A stretch of 64,000 nucleotides of DNA, from positions 3,740-67,739 of the IMG/VR virus record IMGVR_UViG_3300032053_007880; one strand, given 5' to 3'. This stretch comes from a virus. Positions 44,934 through 53,801 of this stretch are shown in pieces. The translations under genes and the position numbers were made by a program. Position 1 is the stretch's first letter. Each line of letters begins with the position of its first letter. The notes under the pieces are model-generated. The model searched no databases. It saw only the letters and a list, made by a program, of their open reading frames with translations, and was not told where the DNA came from.

Positions 44934-46214
44934 TTATTGAACAAGGCTCATTGCATCTACTCGAATCGCATCTGAATCCGCTGATTGAACCAGATTGCCA
45001 AGAATCTCGGCATATTGCCTGCCGACATTTTCCCAAGAGTTTTCTGTAATAAAATTCTTGGCCTTCTTCAACAATTCAGATCTGTATTCTTGAGACGTGA
45101 ATACTTTAGCAATTTCATCAGCTAAAGCCTCTGGACTATCTGGGCGAGGCACCACTCCGTCAAGGTCATCAAACAAATGACAGTCACTGGCAATCACTGG
45201 GATGCCATTTGACATCGCTTTACGAACAGCCCCAGAAGCCCCGTAGACTGTATTGTTCGGATCGTTCTTGTACGGGAACACAGCCAATTTGGCAGTTCTT
45301 AAAAAGTTCTGCATGTGTTCTTCAGAAAGATATCCACGCAACACAACAACATTATCTTGAAGACCTTTTTGCTCAACTAAGTCTCTAATTGTGTTGTAGT
45401 AGCGAGTCTGAATTGAACGTGTATGATTGCTCTCGCTGCACAAGAAGCAATAAAATATGTCTTTGAATTCCTCTGATCGTTTCTTCAGTATGCTTACAGC
45501 TTCTATAGCTTGATCGAGCCCTTTGTATTCAAATCCAAATCCAAACTGGATAATGGTACGTTCATTTTGAAAGATGTTCCATAACTGGTTAACATTGTCA
45601 TAAATGTTGCATCCATGAGGAAGAACAAAAACTTGATTTCTGTGCCCCATGCGTAACAAGCAATCTTTTCCATTCTGACTGTGAGTAATGATGTTTCTGA
45701 TGTATGAGGTGCAGATTGTTTTATCAAGATGCTCGTAAACAGAATGCAAGGTGATCACATAAGGAATGCCATCGAACATCTCCAGCAGTTTAAGGAAATG
45801 TGTAGCTTTGGGGAAAATTCCAAACTCGTGTTGAATGAAGATTACATCAGGTTTGTAATCAATGATCTGCTTTGCCATTTCAATACAACTTTGACCACGC
45901 TTCCAACAACGAGTAGACTCATCTTCAGGGCCGGTCGTTTCTGCAAATATCTTCACTTCTTTAACGTGCTTACGAAGTTCTGGAATCAATTGTTCACTGT
46001 ATGTTGCAATTCCACATTGATCACCCCAATTGCATATTCCGGCGACCTTTAACTCACTCAACAGCTTGTTGTCCGTAGACACGAGCTTTTTACCAATCAA
46101 CGATGTTTCACCAACCAAACTTGGAATATTGAAAGTCTGATTGCCAGTGATACGAATTGCCTTATCCTTGGATACTGCCTGTATCACTCCCTGTTGATTG
46201 ATTGAAACATACAT
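44934..46214 (-). CDS. Glycosyltransferase family 4
   Basis: CGIATYS, IQHEFGIF, TLH, PHG, FGF..YKG, FPY..GASGA..A..G.PVIAS. Confidence 0.9.
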   Translation of the reverse strand: MYVSINQQGVIQAVSKDKAIRITGNQTFNIPSLVGETSLIGKKLVSTDNKLLSELKVAGICNWGDQCGIATYSEQLIPELRKHVKEVKIFAETTGPEDESTRCWKRGQSCIEMAKQIIDYKPDVIFIQHEFGIFPKATHFLKLLEMFDGIPYVITLHSVYEHLDKTICTSYIRNIITHSQNGKDCLLRMGHRNQVFVLPHGCNIYDNVNQLWNIFQNERTIIQFGFGFEYKGLDQAIEAVSILKKRSEEFKDIFYCFLCSESNHTRSIQTRYYNTIRDLVEQKGLQDNVVVLRGYLSEEHMQNFLRTAKLAVFPYKNDPNNTVYGASGAVRKAMSNGIPVIASDCHLFDDLDGVVPRPDSPEALADEIAKVFTSQEYRSELLKKAKNFITENSWENVGRQYAEILGNLVQSADSDAIRVDAMSLVQ

Positions 46215-47178
46215 ATTTAACACTTTCTCGTAGCAAAGCATCTTGTGATTGTCTAACTTCATTCAATTCTGTGCGACCGGATAACATCCTATTTAGAAGA
46301 GTCCTCAACTGATAAGAACTGAAACTCCAATAAGAAAGACCAAAATCTTTCAAACCACAAGTCTCTAAAAAAGACTCATTCTTGTCATGATGCAACAAAT
46401 CTACAAATGGAGTATTTGCCAGAATACTGAATATTGTAGAGTGTAAACGGGTGCTGATCACAGCGTCACAGGCTGAAACAATATCTAATGTTTGTTGCAC
46501 AGAAAGCCTTTCATAAATCGAAAGATTCTTCTTCCAAAATTTGCAACGACTGGAAACAAGCCCATTTGTCACACGATCATCGTGGGGGGCACCAGTAGAC
46601 ATTGGAAAGAATACAAAGCTCGCTGAAATCGAATCAGCTACAGACGCAATGTCCTGAGCAGCTTTATTTAATGTGATGAAGTCTCTGGCAAGCTGAGCGT
46701 CCTTGGCTTGACCCAAATGCCCATTTAAGACAACTCCCACAACCTTGGAATACAAATCAAGCTTGTTGTCAGAAAACATGGTCTGCAACAATTGTTTCCC
46801 GGCTGCTGGGTCTGGATTGAGACAAAAAGCTGCATCGGCTCCTAAATGACAAGGAACGTCATGATCCAGCAAAAGTTGTTGGGATGCTTTGTCTCGCACT
46901 ACAATGCCATCAAATTCCTTTAGAAGAGAAAAAGGAGAATGCTTGTTGGCTGATGCGGAGAACACGTACCTCTTACTAACCTTTGAATCAAGGGCAAGAC
47001 GCACATAACTCTCTGATAAAATGTTTCCGCCGCCAAGGATGCAGATGTCCGCTTGGCCTGTGTCCTTGAATACAAAATCGTATTCAGGGAATAGCTTTGG
47101 AAATGAAAGCTTGTAGCTTTCATCGCCGATGTTAAATCGGTTGTACCAACCGATGATTAAGCAAAGTCTGCGATCCAT
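46162..47178 (-). CDS. Polysaccharide pyruvyl transferase (WcaK-like)
   Basis: GWYNRFNIGDE, LGGGNIL, VRDKAS, ADAAF, STRLHSTI. Confidence 0.88.
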   Translation of the reverse strand: MDRRLCLIIGWYNRFNIGDESYKLSFPKLFPEYDFVFKDTGQADICILGGGNILSESYVRLALDSKVSKRYVFSASANKHSPFSLLKEFDGIVVRDKASQQLLLDHDVPCHLGADAAFCLNPDPAAGKQLLQTMFSDNKLDLYSKVVGVVLNGHLGQAKDAQLARDFITLNKAAQDIASVADSISASFVFFPMSTGAPHDDRVTNGLVSSRCKFWKKNLSIYERLSVQQTLDIVSACDAVISTRLHSTIFSILANTPFVDLLHHDKNESFLETCGLKDFGLSYWSFSSYQLRTLLNRMLSGRTELNEVRQSQDALLRESVKYVCFNQSTGSDTGSIQG

Positions 47179-47628: not shown

Positions 47629-48195
47629 TTATACTGCTACCCCTAAGTAATCAAAATCACTCAAACTCACAAGTCCTGTTCTCCAAGACTTTTCCCGAGT
47701 AATCTTTTTACCTAGAGATTTCTGTGCGTTCCAGATGATCTGTTTACAATACGTCGTAAACTTCAGATCGAGATTGAGCAATTGCTCTCTTTCCGGTCGT
47801 TCTTCTTCAGGAACATACTTTTTCACAAGCTGGTCAAGAATGATCTGCTGGTGAACGCCAAACTTCTGTCGATTCGCCCCGTGCCGCCGCCGATCTTCCC
47901 ATAATTGTTTCAACTCATTGAAAACTTTCATAATGAATTTATCTTTGACGTGATTCTCTAATGCGGCAAAACAACTTTCGATATAGGTTTGTCTCTTATA
48001 ATAACTACCAGCCCTAACCAAAGCAATTCGAAGTTCTTGAACATCGTCATCTGGATCATTGACGTTATTCTTGGCATTCTTCCTTTTGAGTTCCCATGCA
48101 GCGTAATGACAAAGCTTTCCAAATTTCTTATCCAGAACTTCATATTCTAGCTCAGTAATCGGGAAGCTATTCACGATTGTTTCTAATGTTTTCAT
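47629..48195 (-). CDS. Sigma70 region-2-only factor (T4 gp55-like late sigma candidate)
   Basis: DDDVQELRIALVRA resembles region 2.2 (DLIQEGxxGLxxA); KFTTYCKQIIWN resembles region 2.3 (KFSTYAxxWI); no region 4; 188 aa. Confidence 0.6.
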   Translation of the reverse strand: MKTLETIVNSFPITELEYEVLDKKFGKLCHYAAWELKRKNAKNNVNDPDDDVQELRIALVRAGSYYKRQTYIESCFAALENHVKDKFIMKVFNELKQLWEDRRRHGANRQKFGVHQQIILDQLVKKYVPEEERPEREQLLNLDLKFTTYCKQIIWNAQKSLGKKITREKSWRTGLVSLSDFDYLGVAV

Positions 48196-48213
48196 ATTCC
48201 TCCAAGGTTAATT

Positions 48214-49530
48214 CTAGTCTTTCCATAAAACCCTCATGTCGTCGAGTCTCGCCCCAAACTTGATCTCGACGCTCATCTTCAATCCGGGACAAAGTTTCGA
48301 CTCTGCCTCCAAAGTATCCTTCATGATTCGATAAGTAGCTTTTGCGTCTTGTGTTGAACATATTACGCCGTAACAGTCATGTACACTGAATGCGAGTTTT
48401 GATTCCGTGTCTCTAAGAGCCTTCCAAAGCTCGATCATCTTCTCCTGACAAACTGTCGCTGCTACTGATTGGATCACCAAATTACGAGCCGAATAAGCTT
48501 CGCTTGGGTCGTATTTTCTTGGCCTTCCAAAGTAGTCTTTGACGATCCCGCCCTCTTGTGCAATTTTTTGCTTTTCCAAAACCCAATTCATGGCTGTGGA
48601 AAAAATTGTGTTGATGTTGGTTCTGACTTTAATTGCTGCTGACTCTGGAATCTTGAGATTGTCCGCTAGACCTTTTGGGCCAAGCCCATATACGACCGGC
48701 AAAAACATCTTCTTGGACATCTTGCGTTTGATGTCTGTATCACAAGTATCTCCAGTAACGATTTCGTAGATCCGACTGTGCAAGTCGGCTCCAGAATCTA
48801 ATATCTCTTTAAGCTTTTGATCACCTGACAACCATTGCAACACAACAATTTCACAGAAACGATAATCAGCAGTTGCGAAACGTAGGCCATAGCCTCTTGG
48901 TTTCATAGCTTTTCTGATATCTGGTCCCATGTTGTGAGGCAAATAGCATTTCGAAAATTTCTTGGAGCAGCTAAGCCTGCCGTGCGTCTGTCCCTCAATT
49001 TCGTAGTAGGGATGTTCTGTACGTCGGGCGTCACTGTTCAATAATCCCGTTGATTCGATGGATGGTAAAACTCGATAGGACAACGGAATGTGAATGGATT
49101 TGTATATAGCTGGCCAATCTCGATTTTGGGCCACAACATTCAAACGGTTTACCGCCTCAATGAAATTATCTGGCGTATTTTTATGAATGCCAAGGAAAGC
49201 CTCGATGACCTTCAAGTCCAAGACGTTGTTGGCTGGTGTTACAAATTTTGTAGTGTGGTACTTGCAGAAACTGGCAAGAGATTTGAAATTCCAGAAATAG
49301 ACTCGATTGACCAGTTCATTGTTGAAGATGGTGGCGTCAAGAAGACCCATGATAGATGCTACATTGCTTGACGAGATATCGACCTCCACCCTTGAATTTG
49401 TACCACAAACAATGATTTTCGATAGCACGCTGTCTGTAAAATCCAAGACTTCAGGTTCTGTTTTCACAAAAACTGATTTGTTGGATTCAAGCAGTTCTGC
49501 CAGTAGCAGTGCAATCTCTTCGAGGCTCAT
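48214..49530 (-). CDS. Atypical DNA polymerase family A (thumb deleted, exonuclease degenerate)
   Basis: THGRLS, motif A ADYRFCE, DLH, motif B RKMSKKMFLPVVYG, FGRPR, N..IQSVAA, motif C VHD. Confidence 0.88.
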   Translation of the reverse strand: MSLEEIALLLAELLESNKSVFVKTEPEVLDFTDSVLSKIIVCGTNSRVEVDISSSNVASIMGLLDATIFNNELVNRVYFWNFKSLASFCKYHTTKFVTPANNVLDLKVIEAFLGIHKNTPDNFIEAVNRLNVVAQNRDWPAIYKSIHIPLSYRVLPSIESTGLLNSDARRTEHPYYEIEGQTHGRLSCSKKFSKCYLPHNMGPDIRKAMKPRGYGLRFATADYRFCEIVVLQWLSGDQKLKEILDSGADLHSRIYEIVTGDTCDTDIKRKMSKKMFLPVVYGLGPKGLADNLKIPESAAIKVRTNINTIFSTAMNWVLEKQKIAQEGGIVKDYFGRPRKYDPSEAYSARNLVIQSVAATVCQEKMIELWKALRDTESKLAFSVHDCYGVICSTQDAKATYRIMKDTLEAESKLCPGLKMSVEIKFGARLDDMRVLWKD

Positions 49531-49623
49531 ACTCGAATTCTAGCAGATCATTCAATCCACAACTACCCAAGTTTACAAAAAAGCCCTGTTCTGCAAGAAC
49601 TTTTCTCAAGACAAAAGGGGGGC

Positions 49624-50047
49624 CATGGTATGATCATAATGAAAGTAAAAAATAAAAGCACCTTTGAATTTCCTTTATTAAAAAGGCGAATTCGCAAAGT
49701 GCGTAGATTCTCTACATCTCCAAGACTAGGTTGCCCAAAGTACGTGGAGTCACTATGATCACAACCTAAGTTGCGTCAGGAATGGTTGTTTGAACCTCTT
49801 AACCAAATGACTTGCTCGTAGCCCCGGCTACCGCTGTTAAGCAGAACGAGCACATGGCATTGTGCCGGGTTAGTGATCTGGATTACTTAAGTTCTGACAT
49901 AAGGCGTTGAGTTCCCTAATTCTCGCCCGGTTGCGGTAAGACCTACCCGCTGTCAAGTTTTTCGCTGGTCTCGGACGACCATCAAATTCCGAGATTGTCC
50001 CGCAGGTTTTGAAAGTAATTTTGTTCGTCAACCGGAATTCTACCATG
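49624..50047. ncRNA. Candidate large structured RNA (or structured origin) next to the PolA gene
   Basis: Closed by CATGGTA/TACCATG with about ten nested helices and a possible pseudoknot; no credible long ORF; strand unresolved. Confidence 0.5.
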
Positions 50048-50090
50048 TTTTCTTTAAGAATGCAAGCAGTTTCTTTAAGAAAAACAGCCA

Positions 50091-50119
50091 TTGCCAAAAA
50101 AATCTGAATTCAGTAAAGT
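50091..50119 (+). promoter_or_regulatory. Sigma70-type promoter for ORF 50147
   Basis: TTGCCA-N17-TAAAGT; also CTAAATA at 50135-50141. Confidence 0.55.
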
Positions 50120-50146
50120 GCAAGCCTGATAATCCTAAATACTCCT

Positions 50147-50893
50147 ATGGAGAACGAACAAGTGAGATATGACGCTATTTTTGAATGGAACATGTCCACC
50201 ATGGAGATCGAAGCGTACAAACTCGCAGTTCTGTATGAACAAGAATTCGTAAAGTTGTTTGGAGGAACAGAAGACATTGACGGGCAAGTGTTTAGGAGAA
50301 ATTCCATTCCAAAACGAGGTGATCCACGCAAATCTGACATATTCCGTCAGTGTTGGAAACTTCGTCGAGAAACTCGTGGATTGCTCACTCCAGAACAATA
50401 CGTCAACTATGTCAAGGCCAATTTGGCGATCTTGAAAATCAACAAAGCGGCACCGTCACCAAATTCAATTTGTGGCGACAAAGCTTGGATTCGCTGGAAA
50501 GTATGGGAGAGGTGGTACACTCAGAAACTCAGCGACAAATCTTGTGTTGCTCCAATCCCATCTGTGTCAACTACAGACCCAAAAATCATTCGAGAAATTG
50601 ATCGAACAAAAAAGTTTCTGTTCGAAAAATGTGAGGGCGAAACACCATCTTCTGAAAAGATCAGAACATTCATAGAAAACGAATTTTTTAAGCTATGGAT
50701 CTTCTCTGGAAAGGCTTCAATCTATTATGTTATGATGTCGCCTTACACACAACCTTACATTTCAGATTTGGCCGAAGCATGTTCGTTTGATCCAGTTCTT
50801 TACCGTGAAAAGATCACCTCAGAAGTAAGGGATTATTTCCATTATGAGTTCAGCCATGAATTTGCTCGAACTGGGTCAGTGTCCAGTAAATGA
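50147..50893 (+). CDS. Hypothetical protein, weakly gp59 (helicase loader)-like
   Basis: AYKL...RKSD.F..C.KL...ANL...I.GD.A...W spacing recalls T4 gp59; function call is weak. Confidence 0.5.
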   Translation: MENEQVRYDAIFEWNMSTMEIEAYKLAVLYEQEFVKLFGGTEDIDGQVFRRNSIPKRGDPRKSDIFRQCWKLRRETRGLLTPEQYVNYVKANLAILKINKAAPSPNSICGDKAWIRWKVWERWYTQKLSDKSCVAPIPSVSTTDPKIIREIDRTKKFLFEKCEGETPSSEKIRTFIENEFFKLWIFSGKASIYYVMMSPYTQPYISDLAEACSFDPVLYREKITSEVRDYFHYEFSHEFARTGSVSSK

Positions 50894-51191: not shown

Positions 51192-51328
51192 TGTACTTGT
51201 TTGCAATTATCGGAGCAGCATTGATGATCATTGCTGTTGTTTGGTACACGATGACTCAGCCATCAGAAGATGAAGATGACGATTACGAGTCTGATAGAGA
51301 TTGGTATGATGACAGAAAGGAAGACTAA
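51191..51328 (+). CDS. Small membrane protein with acidic tail (45 aa)
   Basis: Manual translation MYLFAIIGAALMIIAVVWY...DEDDDYE; TAATG-coupled at both ends. Confidence 0.6.
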   Translation: MYLFAIIGAALMIIAVVWYTMTQPSEDEDDDYESDRDWYDDRKED

Positions 51329-51915
51329 TGAGTTGTATCATAGTTTTGGGTTGCTTCCGTAGCGGCACCAGTGCTGTTGCTGGAACTCTACACAATCTTG
51401 GGGTTTTCATGGGTGATCATTTTGATCCGCCAAATCAAAATAACCCCAAAGGGTTCTTCGAAGATTTAGAGTTCAAGAGGATTCACAATTGGATGGAAGA
51501 CAGCGGCGATATTGATCACCTCTATAAAAATGTTGACGATCTCTATGAGAAACTCATCGTCCAACGAGAACAAGATCATTCTGTTTGGGGTGTTAAAGAT
51601 CCTTTGTTGTGCAAGTACCTTGGCAAGCTTACAACTTTCCTTAAGGCCGATCACAAATTGATTGTATGTCGCCGTCCGGTTGATGAAATTGCGGCCAGCA
51701 TGACCAAATCAATTGGCTTGGGAATGAATTCAGATCCCATGATGTTTAAGCCGCTGGCCCAGTATTACATTGATCACATGGAAAAGTCTCTAGCTGGATA
51801 CGGAGGCCCTGTTTTGGAAATTCAGAAAACAGATTCTATGTTGCAAATTTTGGAACCAATTTCAAACTTCGTTGGACTGCCAATTACTGATGCAGCCAGA
51901 GAATTTCTGTCATGA
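51328..51915 (+). CDS. Sulfotransferase family protein
   Basis: VLGCFRSGTSAVAG PAPS loop, NPKGFFED, WGVKDP, R.V.E.A.S. Confidence 0.85.
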   Translation: MSCIIVLGCFRSGTSAVAGTLHNLGVFMGDHFDPPNQNNPKGFFEDLEFKRIHNWMEDSGDIDHLYKNVDDLYEKLIVQREQDHSVWGVKDPLLCKYLGKLTTFLKADHKLIVCRRPVDEIAASMTKSIGLGMNSDPMMFKPLAQYYIDHMEKSLAGYGGPVLEIQKTDSMLQILEPISNFVGLPITDAAREFLS

Positions 51916-52283
51916 TAAACATAATCATTCTGCTTTTCGTGTTGCACTGGATTGGCGATTTTGTGTGTCAAACCAGATGGATGGCCGACAACAAAAGCAA
52001 GAACCTACTTGCATTGACTCTTCACGTTTCTGTTTACAGCTTTGTCATTTTTGTAGGTCTGTTGACAGTATCAAATTATTTCTCTATCGAAGGCTTTCTG
52101 CAATTCATGGGGGCAAACTTTATGTTGCATTGGATTACAGATATCACCACCAGTCAATTCACCAAACTTTTTTGGTTGAACAAAGACATGCACAAGTTTT
52201 TCATAGTAGTAGGATTCGATCAAATGATCCATGCTATATGTCTTGTGGTGACTGCCAATTGTTTTCTTTACTTGATTCCATAA
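51912..52283 (+). CDS. DUF3307 membrane protein
   Basis: HWIGDF..QT.WMA..K, H..D, GFDQMIH. Confidence 0.85.
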   Translation: MINIIILLFVLHWIGDFVCQTRWMADNKSKNLLALTLHVSVYSFVIFVGLLTVSNYFSIEGFLQFMGANFMLHWITDITTSQFTKLFWLNKDMHKFFIVVGFDQMIHAICLVVTANCFLYLIP

Positions 52284-53015: not shown

Positions 53016-53801
53016 TTAGTAATACTTGTAATGCACAGCGACCAATTCGCTGATTTCATCTCGTCCTTGTGACGGGAAACAATACAGATCCATATCCATT
53101 GGATTTATCTTCCATGAGTGAGCTTTTCCTACAGGCGATTCAATGTTGTAATTGTTGATTCGAATGGTGCCACATTCTGGATCATACGTTACCATCGTTT
53201 GGTTTTGTTCTACACGCCTTTGACTGATGCCTTCCAGTCCATGCCCACGTACACCCATCTTAATGATGTACGCATTGTCGCTGAGCTTCCTGATGCCTTC
53301 TGGAATGAAAATACTCTTCATCACCTTTCTGGCTTTGCTGTAGATCTGCTGTGTAAGGTGTTCAAGATCTGTGTAGTCAGTGATTGGCGAATCAAGCGGA
53401 CCTTCAAAAACCTTAGACAATTCGTTGTGTATCTCTTGTGCAACAATGTCTTCTAGTCCACCATGACCTTGGCGATTTAGCTGGAACATTTTCTTAGATG
53501 CCCAACGATCATTTCCTAGCTTATCTTTGTTAAGTTTTTTGACATAGAAAGTGTACCCCGGATCAACATCCAGTTTAACCGCTCCCGGCTGGTCTCCCCA
53601 ACGAATTTCATTCATAAATGGCGTGGATGCCTTGAGGTTTCCAATACTTTTTTTGGACAAAATATCCATCATCATTTCAACATCAAATTGATGGATTGGA
53701 CGATCAAGCATAGAGTCATCTGGGATCTCTCCGCCTTTGCTGCGTTCGAATCCAAAGATATCTGTAGCTTCCACGAATTTTTTGAAAGTCAATCTGTTCA
53801 T
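53016..53801 (-). CDS. Hypothetical protein with capsid-targeting-like N-terminus
   Basis: Starts MNRLTFKKFVEA; GTAAATA 7 nt upstream. Confidence 0.65.
   Translation of the reverse strand: MNRLTFKKFVEATDIFGFERSKGGEIPDDSMLDRPIHQFDVEMMMDILSKKSIGNLKASTPFMNEIRWGDQPGAVKLDVDPGYTFYVKKLNKDKLGNDRWASKKMFQLNRQGHGGLEDIVAQEIHNELSKVFEGPLDSPITDYTDLEHLTQQIYSKARKVMKSIFIPEGIRKLSDNAYIIKMGVRGHGLEGISQRRVEQNQTMVTYDPECGTIRINNYNIESPVGKAHSWKINPMDMDLYCFPSQGRDEISELVAVHYKYY

Follow-up and report, generated by a model that had tools for sequence, protein, structure and literature searches.

We have analysed a 64,000-nt stretch of phage DNA, referred to below as the window, which covers bases 3740–67739 of the 67.7-kb IMG/VR record IMGVR_UViG_3300032053_007880 and in which a gene for a family A DNA polymerase without a thumb (hereafter PolA) lies downstream of a gene for a large structured non-coding RNA. 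The record was rated as 14% complete, which implies a parent phage genome of several hundred kilobases. Among 50,697 GenBank phage records the sole similar one was the uncultured 595-kb LR756511.1, with a polymerase identity of 33% over 94%, and relatives of the thumb-less PolA sit on contigs of up to 693 kb. In these huge phages the polymerase gene belongs to a conserved block, which consists of a divergent gene for a 248-aa protein, a slot of variable content, the thumb-less PolA and a small gene for a protein of predicted sigma-domain-2-like fold (188 aa in the window). Synteny was assessed by comparison of open reading frames (ORFs) in 35 related loci, where the 188-aa and 248-aa genes were each recognised in 33 and PolA in 34. 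The two features of central interest are as follows (window coordinates):

48214..49530, minus strand: 438-aa DNA polymerase of family A, without a thumb and with a degenerate exonuclease-like N-terminal domain (Pfam, alignment and structural model)
49577..50030, minus strand: gene for a structured non-coding RNA of ~450 nt (ends inferred from promoter and T-run)

A family A polymerase without a thumb

The 438-aa ORF matched Pfam DNA_pol_A (PF00476; E 2e-30, 106.4 bits against a cut-off of 34.3) over profile positions 81–378 of 381, along with PHROG families of DNA polymerases. The invariant columns of the family correspond to R668, D705, E710, R754, K758, G767, Q849, H881 and D882 of E. coli Pol I. 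The Asp and steric-gate Glu of motif A, the Arg/Lys of motif B and the His-Asp of motif C are all present, and in alignment with E. coli polA residue L277 places a Leu at the F762 position, so that the palm and finger motifs are as the original prediction had described them. It should be noted that the MAFFT family alignment with Klenow misplaces the N-terminal half and was used from the GRLS segment onward only. With the steric-gate Glu and all invariant motif residues kept, the enzyme appears therefore to have everything needed for templated dNTP addition and, judged from its sequence, is predicted to be catalytically competent. Five cysteines conserved in the near clade (C188, C226, C263, C361 and C414) were considered as a metal site and rejected, as C361 alone holds in distant members.

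The loss of the thumb, likewise put forward in the original prediction, was confirmed by an AlphaFold2 model (47-sequence alignment; pLDDT 94.1, pTM 0.92), which has no thumb helices, and by Foldseek, phmmer and hhalign. In the model, an alpha/beta N-terminal domain is followed by helices 123–133 and 139–159, two three-residue strands and then the segment Y176–R185, which aligns with the TGRLS region of Pol I. Foldseek matched the model to Pol theta, KlenTaq, Bst and Klenow (E ~1e-18, TMq 0.71–0.79), phmmer placed query residue 174 against KlenTaq chain index 270, and hhalign aligned query residues 165–428 with E. coli 649–923 and nothing before them. The C-terminal 260 residues correspond one to one, and a deficit of ~98 residues sits at the thumb's place, between the exonuclease-like domain and the TGRLS segment; the thumb of ~100 residues is therefore absent. 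Set against the right-hand fold of family A, with its palm, fingers and thumb, the protein lacks the last.

The N-terminal domain superposes on the vestigial exonuclease-like domain of KlenTaq and Bst and had no Pfam exonuclease match. At the place of Exo I, where the DxE motif has its Asp, K23 is found (Lys or Arg replaces the Asp), and at that of Exo II the stretch W80-N-F-K83-S-L has no acid at the Asp position, both according to motif alignment only. By this reading the acidic residues appear to be missing, as originally claimed, and loss of the proofreading exonuclease itself is probable.

A thumb-truncated Pol I stays active with lowered processivity and fidelity (Minnick 1996, as cited in the part of PMC10061031 available to us). 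By analogy with this truncated Klenow fragment, PolA should have a weak hold on its primer-template and carry out short-patch synthesis. To our knowledge, the thumb is regarded as integral to every right-hand DNA polymerase; a thumb-less family with all catalytic residues is thus a natural test of what the thumb is needed for and, at ~435 aa, a compact scaffold for enzyme engineering.

Naturally thumb-less PolAs form a large conserved family. A word-indexed protein search yielded 280 family proteins at E≤1e-5, the 120 listed being of 433–459 aa, and an exhaustive search of 50%-identity representatives gave 217 at E≤1e-30, 438 at E≤1e-10 and 5007 at E≤0.001; among the 150 representatives listed, most are of 400–460 aa, with some fragments and a few proteins of 507–545 aa. 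No description of a thumb-less PolA or of an adjacent RNA was found in a literature search. The reclassification of PolA into 19 subfamilies (Czernecki et al. 2023, PMC10201439) reports 'broken' thumbs and truncated CcPols, and none of the 19 is without a thumb altogether, as far as the text consulted goes. Both the family and the ~450-nt RNA are, as far as our searches reach, undescribed.

A large structured RNA upstream of the polymerase gene

The gap upstream of PolA (49531–50146) measures 616 nt and is the longest between ORFs of at least 100 aa in the window; as the original prediction stated, it is also highly structured, and beyond chance. The following parts of the RNA were recognised within it:

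49790..49962, minus strand: core domain (model R1, with 176 positions, 40 pairs and 7 helices; cmsearch 135.2 bits, E 4.6e-39)
49632..49760, minus strand: 3' domain (closing helix of 49753–49760 with 49632–49639; RNAalifold)
49611–49629, minus strand: conserved single-stranded C-rich stretch, 3' of the 3' domain (sequence)
49577..49622, minus strand: terminator-like hairpin and T-run (TTTTTT at 49577–49582), inferred 3' end of the RNA (read by eye)

The gap sequence is 85% identical over 184 nt with loci whose PolA shares 78% amino acid identity, which is above the coding flanks, and a locus with 56% PolA identity still shows 87% over 64 nt of the gap. RNAalifold on MAFFT alignments, which were not fitted to the R1 model, returned 55 pairs with compensatory change in 42 for ten loci, and 39 pairs with compensatory change in 32 for 17 loci. 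The closing helix of the 3' domain had 8 pairs in one MAFFT alignment and 7 in another, where 6 of the 7 showed compensatory change. When R1 was applied to 27 distinct sequences, pairing held in 89.4% of cells, compared with 35–48% for slid partners, and two-sided changes occur in 36 of the 40 pairs (both figures being taken from an alignment fitted to R1); 0 of 500 shuffles reached any observed measure. Because of frequent G-U pairs (for example, in 13 and 17 sequences at two pairs), the functional strand is fixed as the coding strand of PolA. Single-sequence folding is weak evidence, with z of −2.2 for the minus and −1.2 for the plus strand.

No match was found in the window at the gathering score of Rfam (release 15), and at E≤10 the region 49450–50250 gave only four snoRNA/miRNA rows at chance level (E 1.9–5.3); ARAGORN found no tRNA or tmRNA. 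With its strong covariation, the ~450-nt RNA constitutes a new class among the large structured RNAs. Few such classes are known, and several of them, such as RNase P, group I and II introns and tmRNA, proved to be catalysts or core machinery. A 75-aa ORF in the gap (49870–50097, minus strand) was not accepted as a gene: it would start with the TTG at 50097, upstream of the −35 hexamer of the RNA promoter (50060–50065), and its alignments contain indels of lengths not divisible by three.

Transcription signals of the RNA and of the polymerase

Promoter-like elements were located upstream of both genes:

50060..50065, minus strand: −35-like hexamer TTGCAT of the RNA promoter (TTGnnn-17 nt-TAnnnT aligned here in 15 of 17 loci)
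50037..50042, minus strand: −10 hexamer TAGAAT of the RNA promoter, preceded by TGG (T61/A62 invariant or nearly so in the alignment)
49537..49545, minus strand: extended −10 TGCTAGAAT upstream of PolA, separated by 6 nt from the ATG at 49530

The RNA promoter is of sigma70 type (TTGnnn-17-TAnnnT in 15 of the 17 related loci), and its −35 hexamer, with 3 of 6 matches to TTGACA, was not listed by a consensus promoter scan. At the other end, a comparably weak hairpin with a T-run was seen by eye in several loci, and a terminator scan did not call that at 49577–49622.

In 14 of the 17 loci a −10 hexamer TAnn[A/C/T]T, often with TGn, lies 6–7 nt before the ATG of PolA, an arrangement shared by only 5 of the 103 ORFs of at least 100 aa in the window. 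PolA has no Shine-Dalgarno match; 36 of the 103 ORFs have one. Since the −10 sits so close to the start codon and no Shine-Dalgarno match was found, the PolA mRNA is probably leaderless, which agrees with what had been proposed from the extended −10 six nt before the ATG.

Distribution of the RNA and content of the slot

R1 matches were obtained in 16 of 47 viral sources, that is, in all 12 with a PolA identity of at least 45% and in 4 of the 35 others (L022, L025, L026 and L048), as well as in 23 of 49 metagenome loci, several or many of the rest having too little upstream sequence. With the filters off, L048 alone of 10 distant loci had a match in a credible position, and of 12 metagenome loci L083, L076 and L105 were matched, L076 and L105 as additions to the 23. 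Every match is on the PolA strand and upstream of PolA, usually at a distance of 190–330 nt, and at 1.2–2 kb with ORFs between in L025, L026 and L065. This position is kept down to a PolA identity of ~31–35% (L022, L025, L026, L048 and L105). Whole-record searches recovered a single copy of the RNA in five of five RNA-bearing records and none in five distant records, three of which are complete; a motif pattern gave 0 matches across five distant genomes, and nhmmer profiles detected no further distant RNA loci. Motif scans of IMG/VR (47 distinct stretches), which reach close relatives only, produced 10 R1-positive contigs, all of them PolA-bearing. A covarying structured element upstream, as the original prediction expected of homologues, is conserved in close kin (12 of 12 viral loci) and was detected in 4 of 35 distant ones. 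As the RNA went undetected in the majority of distant family members, thumb loss is not tied to it, and the absence of a thumb predates the detectable RNA and extends further.

The slot between the 248-aa homologue and PolA is free of ORFs over 575–817 nt in six distant loci (L018, L028, L039, L047, L050 and L051). Several of these spans end in a C-rich motif like that at the 3' end of the RNA (by eye), R1 and nhmmer detecting none of them, and L024 and L029 have other short motifs in common; the ORF-free spans may contain a diverged or a different RNA.

Elsewhere, the slot holds a gene of ~394 aa which abuts or overlaps the PolA start (L002:4784-5947, L021:2820-4004 and L041:2726-3937, in the records W01, G004 and G003, respectively; L020 and L013 are the loci of G001 and G005). 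The family of this protein numbers 120 at E≤0.001, none of them named or assigned a Pfam domain. Its consensus contains, in this order, GRVHT, an invariant Asp followed by SQ, an invariant R...K and an invariant HD, with no Glu at the steric-gate place. In the ESM Atlas (score 0.97, TM 0.79–0.85) its neighbours are clusters with the automatic names 'DNA polymerase family A palm domain-containing' and 'DNA-directed RNA polymerase family', and in an hhalign comparison with thumb-less PolA (Prob 20%, E 1.2e-3) the R...K and HD meet motifs B and C; its profile had no match among PDB sequences. The protein is probably another family A-like enzyme, highly divergent and devoid of the steric-gate Glu; we regard it as a lead only. 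The gene is present solely in the three RNA-less records named above and was not found in six RNA-bearing records searched, the 91%-complete G005 included; in the complete genomes G001 and G002, neither the RNA nor the 394-aa gene was detected.

Two further slots have other occupants. That of L036 (2666-3949) encodes a 427-aa protein with a weak, sub-threshold match to the archaeo-eukaryotic primase domain AEP-TOTE (E 9.2e-5, 22.6 bits against a cut-off of 27); in a BLASTP comparison of the slot ORFs (E≤1e-3) it showed no connection to the 394-aa family. In L032 (1589-3850), the gene before PolA encodes a 753-aa fusion of an HNH endonuclease and an SF2 helicase (ResIII/Helicase_C).

Other DNA polymerases of the related genomes

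Five related genomes were examined, namely G001, G002 and G003 (complete), G005 (91% complete) and LR756511.1. Each had exactly one PF00476 match, in all cases the thumb-less PolA. Pol III alpha (PF07733) was found in four of the five, and in three of the four that are at least 91% complete. Because Pol III alpha-type genes are present in four of the five genomes, PolA is probably an accessory enzyme, and the original view that it is not the replicase is probably right. DnaG_N matches, all below threshold, were obtained with ORFs of 339–382 aa in four of the five genomes and a Prim-Pol match in one.

In G001, G003 and G005, Pol III alpha is encoded by two separate ORFs, several kilobases apart, one for the N-terminal and one for the C-terminal half of the profile, an arrangement similar to the 'minimal split Pol III alpha' of jumbo phages described by Iyer et al. 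(PMC7824862, from the part of the article available to us).

Neighbouring genes

PolA is flanked by the two outer genes of the block:

47629..48195, minus strand: 188-aa helical protein with a predicted sigma-domain-2-like fold and a disordered, conserved C-terminal tail (downstream neighbour of PolA)
50147..50893, plus strand: 248-aa protein, family unknown, divergent, delimits the block on its left (in 33 of 35 loci a homologue precedes PolA on the other strand)

The 188-aa protein is predicted to be all-helical, with a fold like sigma domain 2 and no further sigma domains. It had no match to a Pfam sigma family at E≤0.01 or to PHROG, its model had none in the PDB at E≤0.001 (Foldseek), and tblastn against phages matched LR756511.1 only. 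Of the sigma-like character originally ascribed to this gene, a tentative likeness of the modelled fold is left; sequence homology to sigma region 2 or T4 gp55 found no support from Pfam, PHROG or hhalign. The T4 late sigma factor gp55 (185 aa) is comparable in size, in a sigma-domain-2-like fold (predicted for the 188-aa protein) without further sigma domains and in its conserved C-terminal tail, whereas the two sequences are dissimilar (hhalign Prob 0.2%) and the 188-aa protein is without a PHROG or Pfam match. The last ~12 residues of the tail (window 47629–47670), of the type V-S-L-S-D/E-F/Y-D-Y-L, are near-invariant family-wide at a model pLDDT of <50. The tail looks like a short docking motif and may resemble the clamp-binding tails of T4 proteins. 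A complex prediction of PolA with the 188-aa protein scored 0.00 against a mark of 0.32 and carries no weight either way.

The 248-aa protein had no Pfam, PHROG or PDB match. Its assignment as T4 gp59 (Atlas 0.92, 133 shared features) was rejected, given that 0 of 29 family members matched PF08993 at E≤1 and that the profile finds no PDB chain.

Around the block, at 44934–47178 (minus strand) and 51328–51915 (plus strand), are sugar-modifying genes for a GT4/GT1 glycosyltransferase, a polysaccharide pyruvyl transferase and a weakly matching sulfotransferase-like protein. The gene downstream of the last (51912–52283, plus strand) encodes a DUF3307 membrane-type protein (E 7.1e-10), and a 261-aa protein without a family (53016–53801, minus strand) recurs close to the block, in varying orientation, in 19 of the 35 loci compared.

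Role of the polymerase and its relation to the RNA

The overall explanation that we favour, and consider somewhat probable, is that of an accessory, thumb-less Pol I-like enzyme encoded beside an independently transcribed, trans-acting RNA of ~450 nt. PolA, with an extended −10 promoter to itself, would be translated from a leaderless mRNA and would extend primers or fill short gaps before handing over, the genome being replicated by other means. As the RNA promoter is of sigma70 type, the RNA could be made early by the host RNA polymerase. It would be a discrete and stable molecule, released at its terminator-like 3' end to act in trans, and most probably a ribonucleoprotein partner of some protein of the block. 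A partnership with the polymerase itself is plausible, though unproven.

Several points weigh against this explanation. No PolB match was found in any of the five related genomes, Pol III alpha is split or minimal in three, so that another enzyme as the replicase is not proven, and the complete genome G002 had no Pol III alpha match at all. The strict same-strand position of the RNA exceeds what an independent gene would need, although the whole block is syntenic. The ends of the RNA are deduced from the promoter and the T-run, the highest covariation figures derive from the alignment fitted to R1, and a search of sequencing runs listed no RNA run with the stretch, the 24 DNA runs being sediment or wastewater metagenomes.

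Doubtful, in our view, but deserving attention is the idea of a dedicated initiation module, in which the thumb-less PolA works on a nucleic-acid partner that the slot provides, in some lineages as the RNA made by the host RNA polymerase (a primer, a tether or a substitute thumb) and in others through a second, minimal PolA-like enzyme without the steric-gate Glu. If true, RNA and protein would be interchangeable solutions to one task. The strictly kept adjacency and orientation, together with the polymerase-like protein in the slot of other lineages, fit a supplier of primer or partner beside an extender. A single slot with an RNA in some phages and a minimal polymerase-like protein in others gives a concrete, testable clue to the way in which huge phages begin or finish DNA synthesis.

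A primer or origin module of a more specific kind we hold to be unlikely. The transcript would hybridise near its own gene, its 3' end would prime, and PolA would extend it briefly before a Pol III-type enzyme takes over, much as with RNA II and Pol I of ColE1 or the RNA-primed family A polymerases of T7 and mitochondria; where the RNA is lacking, the primer would come from the second, minimal PolA-like enzyme of the slot. In all close viral loci (12 of 12) PolA is immediately preceded by the sigma70-promoted RNA gene, as it is in 23 of 49 metagenome loci, many others of which lack upstream sequence, and a PolA accessory to Pol III alpha follows the ColE1 logic. The ~394-aa PolA-like slot protein without the steric-gate Glu occurs in G003, G004 and W01 and not in RNA-bearing genomes, but its kinship to PolA is weak (the 20% hhalign probability and automatic Atlas names only), and the complete G001 and G002 have neither a detectable RNA nor a second polymerase. 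Helix 203–208 of the PolA model is short, like the helix whose shortening in CcPol and T7 RNAP was linked by the authors to de novo initiation (PMC7581432 and PMC10061031, in the parts available to us). The locus is at a point of divergent transcription where the local GC skew changes sign, with the cumulative minimum of the window at 48–50 kb; in G005, however, the minimum (55–60 kb) is ~17–20 kb away from the locus (74.8–76.5 kb), and the skew tracks gene orientation. The origin proposed originally thus gains no support from the skew of this 91%-complete genome, which is no strong evidence against it either. Furthermore, the T-run and hairpin suggest a released RNA in place of a persistent hybrid, and a covarying multi-domain fold with invariant loops exceeds a primer's need.

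That the RNA binds PolA as a scaffold, substitute thumb, processivity factor or template was the core of the original prediction, and we now regard this RNA-assisted polymerase as quite unlikely. A structured RNA upstream of, and co-oriented with, a polymerase gene is the gene order of retrons and other systems of a reverse transcriptase (RT) with a non-coding RNA (ncRNA), and the adjacency of RNA and PolA is conserved over wide divergence. All 10 R1-positive contigs of the IMG/VR motif scans carry PolA, but this count is biased, as the scans reached close relatives only. The thumb-less family is far wider than the RNA, which was detected at 4 of the 35 distant viral loci and in none of five distant genomes (three of them complete); RNA and PolA have separate promoters, and genes lie between the two in L025, L026 and L065. 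With the steric-gate Glu and all dNTP-type motifs kept, and DNA_pol_A as its only Pfam family, the enzyme is not a reverse transcriptase, so that the analogy to retrons and telomerase fails on the enzyme side.

Very unlikely, too, is an RNA-independent primase-polymerase of the CcPol-MP kind, in which PolA and a small partner protein would start DNA chains de novo. Reduced PolAs of mobile genetic elements, with shortened N-termini and thumbs, do gain priming activity with a small partner (PMC7581432 and PMC10061031, as far as the text available to us goes); the short helix 203–208 of the model and the close linkage of PolA to a small gene downstream (33 of 35 loci) would fit such a system. The partner there is an adjacent SSB-like protein with an OB fold, however, whereas the downstream protein here is predicted to be helical and sigma-domain-2-like, the 248-aa protein is without a match, and DnaG-like ORFs are probably present in four of the five genomes, at sub-threshold scores.

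Finally, a cis-regulatory leader would act by read-through from the strong upstream promoter into PolA and the sigma-like gene, its fold controlling termination or translation, in the manner of a very large riboswitch or attenuator or of polymerase autoregulation as in T4 gp43. The same-strand, always upstream position and the terminator-like element between RNA and PolA would fit, but we consider this reading very unlikely as well. Given a separate −10 before PolA (14 of 17 loci) and no Shine-Dalgarno match, a read-through transcript would be poorly translated. The distance reaches 1.2–2 kb with ORFs between in L025, L026 and L065, and known leaders are far smaller than an RNA of ~450 nt whose 5' and 3' domains are closed.

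Comparison with known systems

KlenTaq, the Bst large fragment and Klenow, the nearest structural matches, have 540–605 aa against the 438 aa of PolA, which has no thumb (~100 residues) and no 5' nuclease domain and carries Leu at the F762 position. The 'broken-thumb' subfamilies (SPO1-like, KPP25-like, APEX and CHEAP; PMC10201439, in the part available to us) likewise have naturally altered thumbs, recognised from AlphaFold models, but retain a thumb with disrupted helices, whereas PolA has none. The CcPol-MP or PolA-SSB pairs (PMC7581432 and PMC10061031, compared by description from the parts available to us) share with PolA a family A enzyme of mobile elements, a reduced N-terminus and a small adjoining partner gene. 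Their thumb is shortened (S. aureus CcPol) and their partner SSB-like, in contrast to an absent thumb and a predicted sigma-domain-2-like neighbour here; de novo priming is reported for these pairs.

With respect to the RNA, GOLLD and ROOL (Rfam) are similarly large, multi-domain, covarying, phage-carried and of unknown function. They are found beside tRNAs, whereas the present RNA is beside a thumb-less PolA and has no match to their Rfam models at E≤10. The retron and other RT-ncRNA systems have the same arrangement of a structured ncRNA gene upstream of, and co-oriented with, a polymerase gene, although these use a reverse transcriptase and the block encodes a family A enzyme with a steric-gate Glu and an RNA without an Rfam match. 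The ColE1 origin differs in its hybrid formation, RNase H processing and antisense regulator, where the block has a terminator-like RNA end and no GC-skew signal of an origin; nevertheless, both combine a promoter-driven structured RNA of several hundred nt with a family A polymerase that is accessory, in the case of PolA probably so, to Pol III.

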